From Eledone cirrhosa (Eukaryota): a stretch of 64,000 bases of DNA. Of this stretch, positions 4,719 through 39,487 are shown in pieces; position 1 is the stretch's first letter; the number at the start of each line of letters is the position of its first letter. The notes beneath the pieces are model-generated. The model was not told where the DNA came from and ran no database searches. It was given only the letters and a program-made list of their open reading frames with translations. The translations under genes and the position numbers were made by a program. The stretch spans positions 273,916,001 through 273,980,000 of the forward strand of contig OZ024740.1 in the NCBI GenBank assembly GCA_964016885.1. The letters run 5' to 3'.

Positions 4719-5135
4719 TTAGAATTGGAGCTCTGAAATAGCAATATATATATGGATGTATATATAATGTATTTTGCAATACACTTTATGCTTAATTAAA
4801 AGCATTTTGAAGACCGTAAGCGATTGTTTTTTAGAGTAGTGACAAATTCACTTACTTTGATCTCAGCAAACAGGGGAGATAAGCCGACAAGGCCTTGTTT
4901 CGCTTTTGTTGAAGCTTATCAAGGCTAACTACTCCCACCTGTCTACCGAGATCACTGATGTTATATTCTTATAGAATTCTAGTAAATAATCAGGAGCTGA
5001 TTATGCAGAGCGGTTGTTGGTGAGGCAGAAATTAAAAATTAGAATTGGAGCTCTGAAATAGCTTACGGTCTTCAAAATGCTTTTAATTAAGCATAAAGTG
5101 TATTGCAAAATACATTATATATACATCCATATATA
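4719..5135 (-). mobile_element. Retrozyme-like/Penelope-derived ~320-bp non-coding unit with inverted partial copy
   Basis: Direct repeat ttagaattggagctctgaaatagc at 4719 and 5039 (320 bp apart). Inverted repeat 4748-4821 vs 5061-5135. Contains a hammerhead and is flanked by (TA)n. Confidence 0.75.
4882..4926 (-). ncRNA. Type I minimal hammerhead ribozyme, U3-A8 core variant
   Basis: Minus strand: agcc TTGATAA gctt caacaa aagc GAAA caagg ccttg TC ggct. Stem I agcc/ggct, stem II gctt/aagc, palindromic stem III, GUC site. Confidence 0.85.
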
Positions 5136-5401
5136 TATATATATATATATATATATATATATATATATATATATATATATATATATATGTATATATATAT
5201 ATATGTATATATATATATGTATATATATATATATATATATATATATATATATATATATATATATATAGAGAGAGAGAGAGAGAGAGAGAGAGAGAGAGAG
5301 AGAGATAACTATATGTATATATATATATATAGTATGAATTACCATGTTAATGATTAAATAGTAAATAAATTTACATACATACTTATGTATGTAAACTTAC
5401 T

Positions 5402-5640
5402 TACGAGGATTGGCTGAAAAGTTCATAGGCTGATTATGAAGGATTGATGGTATGGCTGCAAAAATTTTGCATGCATTAATCTCAATTCTTTTTATTAATA
5501 ACTGCATTGTTTCTTTCCTAGGATTATGTTGAAAAATGAACACCATTCGGGCATTCCATGTGAGTATGTTGATCACTATCTCAACATTTCTACCGACTCT
5601 TGTATATTTTGTCACACTGTGTGTGAATGGTCAGTGTTAT
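5402..5640 (+). mobile_element. Possible Tc1/mariner terminal fragment
   Basis: Begins tacgaggattggctgaaaagttc, resembling mariner TIRs (TA-CGAGG...TGAAAAGT). No partner TIR found. Confidence 0.4.
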
Positions 5641-6076
5641 TTGAACGCATTATTTAAAAAAAAAGTGAAAAGAGAACGACTCGACTATTTTCGCGTGGAT
5701 TTTGCAAATTTAATCAGTTTATCTGCCTCATTCCGTTCTGCGGAGAGTGCGGAAGTAGCTTACTGGTAAATAAGAACCACGCATTATTGTCTCTTATTTT
5801 ATAAATCAAATGTAAGTAAAACTTCATTTCCTGATGGAATTCATTCATTCAATTGTAACGAAATTCGGGCAGTCTTCAAAGAAATGTGTAATGTCTCTTC
5901 CACATCCACGCCCATTTCATCAATAAATCGTCATTGCATTTTATTATTGCTCACAGGCATTTTATTGATTTTATCATTGGCGTGTGCAAAACGATACTTC
6001 AAACCTCGGTAACAAACAACTCGTAGTAGGATTAATCCTTCACTAATAACGAAAGTTTCTGGATTTGGTAACTAGT

Positions 6077-6208
6077 AATTGTTTCTACTTTTGGCACAGG
6101 GCCAGAAATTACCCAGTGCATTACTGGTACTTTATTTTATCGACCCCGTAAGGATGAAAGGCAAAGTTAACCTCGCGGAATTTGAACTCAGAATGGCAAG
6201 GGCCGTAA
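6077..6208 (-). mobile_element. tRNA-type SINE, family A, 5'-truncated
   Basis: Reverse complement of gagttcaaat(t/c)ccgccgaggttaactttgcctttcatccttacggggtcgataaaataaagtaccag, which recurs more than 12 times in the window. Confidence 0.9.
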
Positions 6209-6784
6209 TGAAATATTGTTAGCTGCACATAACCCGTTATATTCTTGCATAGATGTACATGAAAACATGTTTGACAATGTCAACTGTTTGCTAAATATGT
6301 TTCGAAGTGATTTAAAATAAAATAAATACTTGTCTCTTCAGCATGATTTTTTATCATAAAAAAAATAAATCGTCGATCGACTTTCGTCAAATCGGACCGA
6401 GGAAACAATTTTTCCGATGGTATTTCCAATTGCTAATACTATCTATCGGTCGCAACTCCAGGTAGAAGGAAAAAACGTGAAATAAAGTGTCTTGCTCAAG
6501 GACATAACGCATCGCCCGGTATCGAACTGACAGCCTCATGACTCTCAGCCACACGCCTTTTTATCATGTGCTCTTCTAATTTTGAAGTTTTCCTATATTC
6601 AACGGAAAACATTTTTCGGTAAATCGAAAACTCTTAATGGCGTTTTGTTGGTGACGAAATAAAAAGGAAAAATAAACGTTAGATATTTGACAGGAAATTA
6701 CCAATATGGTTATGGTTCGGCCAGGCTTATATCTGTAATAATTATACTAGTATAATGAAATGCTTTTTTTTTCATTTGTTTTAG

Positions 6785-6971
6785 TTATTCATTAATTCGG
6801 GTGACATGGTTAATATATATTCTTTGCACCTTTCCTACCTCGCACTTCCCTCGCCTTGCAAATCTCCTTTACAACAGTTATACATTCCAGAGACAGTGTG
6901 TTACATTGCTGCTCCCAGAGTTATACGTAGTGCCCACTTTGGGAATCGCCGACGTTGTCTTCAACTCTCTC
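6785..6971 (+). CDS. Candidate internal coding exon of an unknown protein
   Basis: Strong pyrimidine tract plus TAG acceptor (6781-6784). Open frame LFINSGDMVNIYSLHLSYLALPSPCKSPLQQLYIPETVCY...CLQLS. GTAAGC donor at 6972, phase 1. Confidence 0.4.
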
Positions 6972-7453
6972 GTAAGCATATGTTTGTTCCATTTTCATCT
7001 GCGTTTTTAGTGAAACTGGTATTTTGATTTCATAGTCTGATTATGTAGGAAACATTGAATTGTTTTTAACCGAAAAATATGTTCTGGTTATAATTGTAGT
7101 GGTGGTGGAGGTAAGCATGTTGCTTCTGTCGGTAGTGGTAGTGATTAGGATAGTAATGACGTTTGTCGGGTGTCTGTGGCAATACAATTAGGGGTGGTAA
7201 TATAACTGGAGGTGATGAGAATGCTAATGGTGATGATTGATGTGGTTTTGTTTGTATAGTGGTTTGGCTTTCGTAATGTTGGAGATGGTAGGAAGATATT
7301 TGTGATTATAGTGGCTTTTGTGGTGGTGTTGTTGTGATGCTGGTGATAATTGTGGTTTGGGGGCGTTGTTGAAGTTGTTTTTGTTGGCGTTGTTGGTGTT
7401 CGTTGTAGTTGTTCTTGTTGGTTCGTTGAAGAGCTGTTTACTTGACTTGCCAG

Positions 7454-36826: not shown

Positions 36827-37905
36827 AAAAAAACCCCAAAAAACTATTATTATTATTGTTGTTGTTGTTGTTGTTGTTATTACTGTTGTTGTTATAGTAT
36901 TGTTGTGTTTTGAAAGAGTGGTAGATTGGAAGTATCGGTAGAACGCCGGGCAAAATGTTTTGCCGTATTTAGTTACAACGTACATTCTCAGTTCAAATCC
37001 CGTAGAGAGCAACTTTATTTTCATCTTTCTGTGTTCAATAAAAGTAAGTACCAGTTAAATACTAGGTCGATAAATTAACCCCAAATGCCAGGACTTGTTA
37101 GAAATAACTATTACTCTCTTTTGATATGAATAGCTTTGGTTTTAGAACGAACGTTCAATGAAAATTGGATATTTGAAATGTTATGGTGGATCTTTTTATT
37201 TTTAATTGAGTTTGGACTTCGAAAGGTCTTGACGTCTGCACCTGTTCAAGTGATAGATAAATGGCTGTCTGGCTTTCAGATATATTGTTTTGTTTATAAA
37301 GAATTCTTCTGCTGTTTATATTTAGTTCATCGAGGTTCCTACTGTATAGGACCCATAAGCGATACTAATAACGACGTAGCACTGGGTAATCACCAAAAGG
37401 AAATCTTTATCAAATACATGTAAACAAATTTAAAACAAAATAAATGGAAACAAAAGATAGTCAGTTACAACAACAACAAAAACAGTCGCAATCTCGTATC
37501 TCAAAACACAAATTTGCTCGACGTCAATAAAGTACTAACAATAACAACAACGACAACATCAACACAAACTTGTACAATATCAACAAATACAATCACTACA
37601 ACACATTGGCAAGCATTACAATACGAAAGGACGTTTGAGACATGGTTTGAAAACAGTTAAAAATATTGTAGGCGACTGTCATATGCCCTTAAGGGAATAA
37701 TTTACAGGAGCTCCAAACGATGCGTGGCACTATGTGGTGCTAGTGACAGAGATAGACCACCTGCATGTATGTGCTTGGTCTTTAAACATTGCTGTTGTTC
37801 GCCAAACTGAAGATATGCAGTTTTTACCATCACTATTATATGAATGTCACTTCTCAGTTTAATACAATGAAGCATTAGGAAAATTGACATCGTGTACATA
37901 CATAC

Positions 37906-38067
37906 GATATTTCAGGTGACTAGGTTTATTAACTAGCTTTGCATCATATAATCTTGATTGATTAATAAAACCAACCTCAGAAATATAAACACGCTCACAA
38001 TGGGAACCTGGGAAAATACTGTTAATATATTTTGGGTCTCGTTTCACAGGCGCGTGTTTGGAACATA
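37906..38067 (-). CDS. Candidate coding exon of an unknown protein
   Basis: Minus-strand ctttctacag acceptor, open frame CSKHAPVKRDPKYINSIFPGSHCERVYISEVGFINQSRLYDAKLVNKPSHLKY, GTATGT donor. Confidence 0.35.
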
Positions 38068-38817
38068 CTGTAGAAAGCTACATAATGGCTACAGAGAGTC
38101 ACATATTTAGTGCTCGAGCTTTCTGTACTCAGTTATTAACATATTAAACAATCGCTCAATTAACATCCTATGATCTTAAAAACAGAAAGGCGCAGAAGAT
38201 AATGTAGTGATAGATACATTATGTCATGGTAGACTATGACCGAATACAATCCACTTGATACTGAAATACATTTACATTTGATCCTGGGCCACCGTGATAT
38301 TTGGAGGATATAAGTTTATTAGAAATTCTCTTACCAATATTATTTGATTTTTAACAGCAAATTCAGTAGTTTTTTGGTATTTAATGACATTTACATTCTG
38401 ATATCAAATACTGCTAGCTGCAATATTTGCCTTTCATCCTTCCGAGGTTGATAATATTAGTAGTTTGAGAGATTATAATTGACAGTTCCTTTCATTCAAT
38501 ATATATGGCCTTGTACGTATGTTAAAAACCAATATTATTTAATTCAATTATTCCATATAGAGGTGCAGGCATAGTTATGTGGCTAAAAAGTTCTCTCCGC
38601 AACCACGTAATTTCGAGTTCAGTCGCACTTTATCTTCTACTATTTTGTGGGTGAAATTTGGTAGGCTGAAATTAAGCAGAAGCTCATCGCATATATATAT
38701 ATACTGTATGTTTAATTAACTGTATGTAATATACTGTATGTTTAATTAAAAACATTCGCTATGAGTTTTAAAGTAGTGACTACGTCACTTACTAGTTCTA
38801 GGCAAATACAACAGAGA

Positions 38818-38867
38818 GCGGCCGACAGACAGTCTGTTTCTCGCTTGTGAGCGTTTATCAAGACCAC
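38818..38867 (-). ncRNA. Type I hammerhead ribozyme, U3-A8 core variant
   Basis: Minus strand: gtggtc TTGATAA a cgct caca agcg a GAAA cagac t gtctg TC ggccgc. Confidence 0.8.
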
Positions 38868-39228
38868 ACACTCAGTTGCCTTTGCTGAGAATTATACAGG
38901 TTGGATTCTTATAGAATTCCAGTAATAATCAGGAGCAGATTATACAGAGCGATTGCCGGTCCACCAAAAATTACGTATTAGTATTGGTGCTCTGAAATAG
39001 CAATGTATACATGAATGTATGTATAGTATATTTGGCAATATATTGTATGTTTAATTAAAAACATTTAGAAGACCATTCATTATGAGTTGTTAAGTAGTGA
39101 CTATGTCACTTACTTATTCTCCGCAAAAACAAAAGAGGGTGACCGTTACTTAATTAGCTCCTGATTATTACTGGAATTCTATAAGAATCCAGCCTCTATA
39201 ATTCTCGGCAAAGGCAACTGAGTGTGTC

Positions 39229-39278
39229 GTGGCCTTGATAAACGCTCACAAGTGAGTACCAGACTGTCTGTCGGCCGC
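39229..39278 (+). ncRNA. Mutated hammerhead copy (GAAA changed to GTAC)
   Basis: gtggcc TTGATAA a cgct caca agtg a GTAC cagactgtctg TC ggccgc. Confidence 0.6.
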
Positions 39279-39487
39279 CCTCTGTTGTTCTTGCAAAGAA
39301 TAAATAAGTGACATAGTCACTACTTTAAAACTCATAGCGAATGGTCTTCTAGATGTGTTTAATTAAACATACAGTATATTGCCAAGTATACTATATATAA
39401 ATATATATATATATAAAGAAAAAGAGATGAAATCGAAAATGCAACTGAAGTCTTATTTTTTAAAAAAATATATATATTTATTTGGTT

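Follow-up and report, generated by a model that had tools for sequence, protein, structure and literature searches.

A non-coding hammerhead repeat family of Eledone cirrhosa, probably copied into TA microsatellites by a Penelope-like reverse transcriptase

Results

Two hammerhead loci in the window

We analyzed a stretch of 64,000 nt from Eledone cirrhosa (assembly GCA_964016885.1, contig OZ024740.1, positions 273,916,001 to 273,980,000; hereafter the window), in which two loci carry copies of a repeat unit of about 320 nt with a hammerhead ribozyme motif (Table 1). A preliminary description of this DNA, made from the letters alone, had reported the same sequence blocks at both places, and we observed that the two loci are indeed homologous, with an identity of about 70% (E 1e-33 to 1e-37). 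Locus 1 consists of 1.08 units followed by an inverted 0.26 unit, with TA runs on both flanks and an overlap of 6 bases at the junction of the main and the inverted arm, and locus 2 consists of about 1.45 units followed by an inverted 0.85 unit; both thus exceed one unit and end with an inverted partial copy, as had been described. The two loci also begin at different points of the unit (position 1 in locus 1, position 26 in locus 2), but the shift is only 25 bases and looks larger because the first stretch of locus 2 is rearranged and carries a 12-base deletion. No protein-like open reading frame (ORF) was found across locus 1 or locus 2.

A type I hammerhead lies on the minus strand of each locus, with the stems that had been listed before. 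The accompanying claim that the hammerheads keep all pairings overlooks two points: in locus 2 an A stands opposite an A at the base of helix II, and in the hammerhead of the inverted arm of locus 2 (39235-39272) the GAAA is broken. Applying a relaxed hammerhead descriptor to the window we found four matches, namely locus 1, locus 2 and two in an adjacent Penelope-like element, while 100 block shuffles of the window averaged 0.03 matches and never gave more than 1. In Rfam, Hammerhead_HH9 was matched at 4865-4938 (E 0.0026, 22.2 bits, under the gathering score of 52). No hammerhead was seen among 150 of the 286 matches of a whole-window Rfam scan, nearly all of which were sub-threshold microRNA matches driven by microsatellites.

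Table 1. Positions of the two loci and of the adjacent Penelope-like element in the window
Feature	Position	Strand	Remark
(TA)n target at locus 1 start	4709..4718	.	
Locus 1 main arm, subfamily A	4719..5062	- (hammerhead strand)	start = initiation site A (unit position 1)
Locus 1 type I hammerhead	4859..4953	-	long helix I extension; U3:A8 core; helix III fully palindromic; core to C17 at 4922-4886
Locus 1 inverted arm	5057..5138	+	unit 107 back to 26; outer end = initiation site B
(TA)n beyond outer end of locus 1 inverted arm	5139..5267	.	
Locus 2 main arm, subfamily B	38693..39146	-	start = site B
Locus 2 type I hammerhead	38818..38867	-	U3:A8 core; helix III with one central unpaired base; core to C17 at 38861-38824
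Locus 2 inverted arm	39149..39414	+	about unit 280 back to 26; ends at site B within (TA)n
Neptune-like Penelope element	39415..42660	-	5'-truncated, with inverted arm, on the locus 2 TA run; candidate helper type
Reverse transcriptase-endonuclease frame of Neptune-like element	42089-40890	-	deleted within the endonuclease
U3:A8 hammerhead cores in Neptune-like element	start at 39521; start at 42471	-; +	

A genome-wide family with a covarying hammerhead

Relatives of locus 1 were found on many contigs at 95-100% identity (40 of 1509 candidates scored) and relatives of locus 2 at 84-91% (40 of 2326 candidates scored), and two exact motifs gave 820 and 1,951 matches in the genome, with 0 for their reversed controls. 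The unit is a non-coding repeat with a hammerhead motif that occurs genome-wide, in well over a thousand places. Its natural laps measure 302-330 bases, with modes at about 316-321, each unit holds one type I hammerhead motif, and arrays reach 26 laps. An 18-mer of the subfamily A hammerhead is skewed between the strands (1190 forward, 761 reverse), perhaps due to long arrays. In three organisms the unit is also covered by contigs, taken from three runs whose kind is unrecorded, and one contig spans the unit junction, which hints at relatives elsewhere.

Hammerhead-region copies were assigned to subfamily A (50 copies, 1.0% from the consensus), subfamily B (34 copies, 6.2%) and subfamily C (55 copies, 9.1%), with 7 further copies being intermediate. 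The core is U3:A8 in 48 of the 50 copies of A and in 27 of the 34 copies of B, whereas 37 of the 55 copies of C have C3:G8 (14 of the 55 were unparsed); the core is therefore not invariant but covarying. The UUGAUAA core that had been called invariant does not extend to the whole family, and the commonest subfamily in a position-ordered sample has the canonical CUGAUGA. This sample was composed of 70 loci taken from the first matches on contig C1, of which 65 were used, 4 overlapping ones were dropped and 1 remained uncalled. Intermediate copies at L179, L184, L186, L191 and L192 combine a C3/A8 or U3/A8 core with a subfamily C-like background, which suggests in what order the core was switched.

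Helices I and III covary within the family. The long extension of helix I is retained in each subfamily with a different sequence, and the self-complementarity of helix III is conserved to its very centre: among 28 loci of the A group the four commonest helix III haplotypes account for 58 of 75 hammerheads, are paired up to the central base and include a two-sided swap. The innermost pair of helix III cannot close in a hairpin, and cleavage as a dimer would therefore be favoured; dimeric cleavage had been suggested before from the self-complementary stem III, and the conservation to the centre fits such a model. From an alignment made by sequence only, RNAalifold gave two-sided changes at 12 of 21 pairs. 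When the unit was folded as a circle, the predicted z was -5.1 to -8.4 for the ribozyme strand, compared with -2.5 to -6.0 for its complement. The core and helix III variants and these folds speak for selection on the ribozyme. Compared with C, subfamily B has a 4-base tandem duplication that ends at the predicted cleavage site (38824-38835 in the window) and makes helix III longer, possibly the scar of a ligation or of template jumping.

Starts, ends and arm pairs

To describe the ends of the copies we defined two start intervals, around unit positions 1 and 26, which together cover 33 of 320 positions and were set after earlier loci had been seen. In the position-ordered sample 79 of 97 outer starts lie in these intervals (10 expected), as do 5 of 33 outer ends, and in a second set of 28 loci, 20 of them picked for having several matches, 47 of 52 starts are at the same two sites. 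TA-rich flanks accompany 45 of 97 starts versus 9 of 33 ends in the former sample. Inverted pairs make up 32 of its 65 loci, and 46 of its 107 arms are longer than one unit. An overlap of the two arms where they meet was seen in 33 of 59 inverted pairs. Copies of the unit are thus polar, with fixed starts and ragged ends, and the free circular permutation proposed in the preliminary description is contradicted by starts that are confined to two sites 25 bases apart.

A cleaved linear monomer as template would lead to a pile-up of complementary DNA (cDNA) ends at the cleavage site. We found no such pile-up (1/83, 2/38 and 0/37 ends within 3 bases) and rejected this template. An analysis of the hazard of stopping along the arms suggested more stops after one lap, but counts are small and the trend is gradual, and it is not used as evidence.

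Laps and shared variants

Non-consensus bases are shared at 12.3 per kb between the arms of one locus versus 3.1 between loci, and a further estimate of arm sharing gave 1.2 within a locus versus 0.16 between loci; both arms of a locus derive from one haplotype. We then compared laps in register at 42 loci with three or more segments. At six of them (L018, L023, L239, L240, L249 and L257) a non-majority base is common to the same lap of both arms and absent elsewhere, and L247 and L251 share variants with an offset of one lap, as would fit an internal start. Laps copied from a monomer circle would all be identical, and since opposite arms have lap-restricted variants in common at matching laps, the general route is not one of rolling on one circle of ~320 nt. 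At L239 and L240 the shared base lies in the outermost laps though the arms are unequal in length, and hairpin gene conversion is therefore argued against. Later laps of L239 with a changed A15.1 were still copied. Fold-back copying of the first arm was rejected at L239, where each arm has sequence that is missing from the start or end of the other. These data indicate that the template is likely often a heterogeneous multimer, with monomer rolling possible in some events.

Long arrays of the unit also amplify locally at the DNA level. One array of 26 laps from site A (L279 738-8980, contig C1 at about 293.635-293.643 Mb) contains an exact duplication of a 6-lap block and a weaker periodicity of 4-5 laps; it could be a long donor, a nascent satellite or an assembly artefact. 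An alternating lap pattern was observed in L009/L013.

The adjacent Neptune-like element and other Penelope-like families

The Penelope-like element next to locus 2 is labelled Neptune-like on the basis of its cysteine linker, compared with PMC8557442. Its hammerhead has U3:A8 and a palindromic helix III. Many intact frames of 775 amino acids with reverse transcriptase (RT) and GIY-YIG domains belong to its family genome-wide, and the nearest named protein relative is from Octopus bimaculoides (75%). Among 40 compared family rows, some of them from overlapping loci, 33 have their 3' end at one of two sites about 70 bases apart (19 at 42581, 14 at about 42650-60) and 31 are followed by TA. This family has the same two-site, TA-targeted, inverted signature as the unit.

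Using four divergent Neptune proteins as queries in a search for a parent element, we obtained three Neptune-like families, and it is these three, out of the Penelope clades, that the helper and parent comparison covered. None of them has the unit as its pseudo-long terminal repeat (pLTR). Among 60 loci with 1.5-kb flanks, a Penelope protein match occurs only at L003, where a decayed fragment is separated from the unit by TA, and Neptune-like 3' DNA lies near 4 of the 60. The copies are thus not tied to a Penelope ORF. The preliminary description had named a constant tie of this kind, or fixed linear termini, among the findings that would refute it; the two fixed start sites correspond in part to the latter.

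The three young Neptune-like families each have an upstream ORF of ~400-480 amino acids that overlaps the RT-endonuclease ORF (L091 about 2375, L129 about 2560, L272 about 1437), and in each overlap a U UUU UUA heptamer stands in phase with the upstream frame, a sequence arrangement that suggests a programmed -1 frameshift. A frameshifted ORF1 is indicated for some Penelope types in a figure legend of PMC8557442. Further hammerhead-like families with a short palindromic helix III were seen at L094 (about 6819 and 7260), L005 (about 2938) and L137 (about 7238) as well as in the flanks of L008, L026, L027 and L049, several of them at TA runs.

Other features of the window

General repeat finding in the window was dominated by TA arrays. 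A degenerate TA array of 4.4 kb lies at 16222-20628. A perfect palindrome of 84 bases at 12971-13054 is centred on a short TA run and is possibly another inverted pair of element ends. The decayed remains of a non-LTR retrotransposon lie at about 31200-36300; they match RVT_1 and zf-RVT and have a zinc-knuckle-like frame further upstream, and we take the element to be L1/Tx1-like.

Discussion

Our findings make it probable that the unit is a non-LTR retrozyme family that is copied into TA microsatellites by an RT-endonuclease of the Neptune type of Penelope-like elements, often from multi-unit RNA. In the mechanism we propose, the helper protein would cut both strands of a (TA)n tract, and each 3' end would prime reverse transcription at an internal position of the RNA, namely at either of two AU-rich sites. 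These are separated by 25 bases and lie about 140 and 168 bases 3' of the point where the ribozyme cleaves. The two cDNAs would then be extended in converging directions, end at variable positions and be joined, in many cases by short microhomology, so that an inverted pair results. In many events the template would be tandem RNA made by read-through, or a circle of several units, from one donor locus; a monomer circle may serve at times. In this model multimers are likely cut by the ribozyme, which probably acts as a dimer by way of the palindromic helix III; such cutting would keep the ribozyme under selection, while single insertions would need no cleavage. The Neptune-like element beside locus 2 represents a candidate type of helper. 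For the narrower version, in which the Neptune RT primes twice from one cut TA tract, at two internal sites of one multi-unit RNA and the palindrome of helix III co-evolves for dimeric cleavage, we would put the chances somewhat below even.

The preliminary description had proposed that each copy arises when a monomer circle of ~320 nt, with no fixed point of entry, is reverse-transcribed in a rolling manner, and this we regard as unlikely. Such a circle would explain arms that exceed one unit, and cDNAs that cross the cleavage site without a pile-up of ends; its long helix I would, we infer, hold both ends of the cleaved monomer together, and circles have been demonstrated for other animal retrozymes (PMC7229834). 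Private variants are common to laps at L238 (7 laps, one private base shared) and L029 (6 laps, 2 private bases), where monomer rolling fits equally well. However, it does not account for entry confined to two sites, for lap-restricted variants common to both arms, where conversion is argued against, or for the local amplification of the 26-lap array with its block duplication. We consider it still less probable that the units are truncated 3' ends, that is pLTRs, of an autonomous Penelope-like element outside those found. The unit copies are structurally indistinguishable from Penelope-like insertions, and retrozymes in Xenopus are reported to be homologous to pLTRs (preprint 10.64898/2026.07.22.740005), but the unit is followed head to tail by further copies of itself, in up to 26 laps, and the flanks of the 60 loci with their single decayed protein match and four cases of Neptune-like 3' DNA speak against it as well; a pLTR as the origin of the unit is possible. 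It appears very improbable that the unit is a satellite or foldback element that recombination has spread at the DNA level, with an incidental ribozyme. In favour of this reading, the higher-order periodicity of the 26-lap array and the alternating laps of L009/L013 show local DNA amplification; against it are the polar structure with fixed starts and ragged ends, the presence of copies 95-100% identical on many contigs, and the covariation of the catalytic core and the helices.

Several observations also weigh against copying by a Neptune-type enzyme from multi-unit RNA as we propose it. Eighteen of the 97 starts lie outside the two start intervals, L256 has an offset opposite to that expected from an internal start, L238 and L029 are explained as well by a monomer, most of the 42 loci in the register comparison have no informative variant, and several of the registered cases depend on one base, which in some of them belongs to the variable centre of helix III. 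The active fold of the monomer is predicted to be easy for subfamily B and to lie 7-8 kcal/mol above the minimum for A and C, and the hammerhead core was misfolded in the RNAalifold consensus. When the unit was compared with the three Neptune-like pLTRs, we found no homology beyond AT-microsatellite-like matches and one separate insertion, and the genome holds more Penelope or retrozyme families, which bears on the assignment of the helper.

Judged by its sequence, the unit family is an animal non-LTR retrozyme, a class already described (Cervera & de la Pena 2020, PMC7229834; Li, Clavereau & Pollet, preprint 10.64898/2026.07.22.740005); the earlier suggestion of an undescribed retrozyme family thus applies to the family and not to the class. 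Literature searches listed no paper that treats this family, or that describes such an insertion signature for retrozymes; repeat databases lay outside their scope, and the family may already be catalogued there. As in the non-LTR retrozymes of these two sources, the tandem unit is ~300 bp long, non-coding and low in GC, with one type I hammerhead, occurs as monomers to multimers, has a highly self-paired predicted circle and co-occurs with Penelope-like elements. Its laps fall within the ~170-400 nt of a short retrozyme unit, and we observed one type I hammerhead, no coding capacity, no attached transposon ORF and a predicted stable self-paired fold. In contrast to retrozymes as described there, its initiation is fixed at two sites, TA tracts are targeted and the arms form inverted twins; its young subfamilies, moreover, combine U3:A8 in the core with a longer helix III. 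According to a review (PMC7761336), retrozyme repeats have no motif that points to a helper, and Penelope-like helpers were proposed from co-occurrence and pLTR similarity only (PMC7229834; 10.64898/2026.07.22.740005).

Three features expected of a Penelope dependant are present in the unit: its 3' termini lie at two adjacent sites ('tail'), an inverted 5'-truncated arm is formed and the target is a TA microsatellite. All three are shared with Neptune and Poseidon elements, whose hammerhead likewise precedes the start sites and has a palindromic helix III (PMC8557442, PMC11167929, PMC4209133). Craig et al. list tails, inverted truncated arms and a TA bias as Penelope-like hallmarks (PMC8557442), and a U3-A8 core is reported from Schistosoma Penelope elements and the palindromic helix III from Penelope hammerheads (PMC4209133). 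Unlike Neptune and Poseidon elements, the unit repeats on itself and has no ORF and no detectable homology to the three pLTRs tested; an ORF with RT and GIY-YIG, as in autonomous Penelope-like elements, is absent from the unit, and both domains are present in the family of the adjacent element. Frangieh et al. found that a Penelope-like protein in vitro cuts both strands at AT-rich DNA, initiates at two adjacent internal RNA sites and inserts independently of ribozyme activity (PMC11167929). Non-autonomous Chlamys elements such as MRC1 are likewise non-coding Penelope dependants with multicopy head-to-tail insertions, but they generally resemble the 3' end of the autonomous partner, and the Chlamys clade is mostly without canonical hammerheads (PMC8557442).

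Two questions are at stake: by which enzyme the non-LTR retrozymes of animals are mobilised, and whether it copies them from the circle. The presence of a young family, with subfamily A at a divergence of ~1%, beside intact Neptune-like elements with the same insertion signature makes the questions of helper and template directly testable, and the family is at the same time a natural series of hammerhead variants, with a switch from C3:G8 to U3:A8 and co-evolving helix III palindromes. If true, double priming by a Neptune RT would name the long-sought helper of animal retrozymes, and multimers rather than monomer circles would be the usual template of their transposition.

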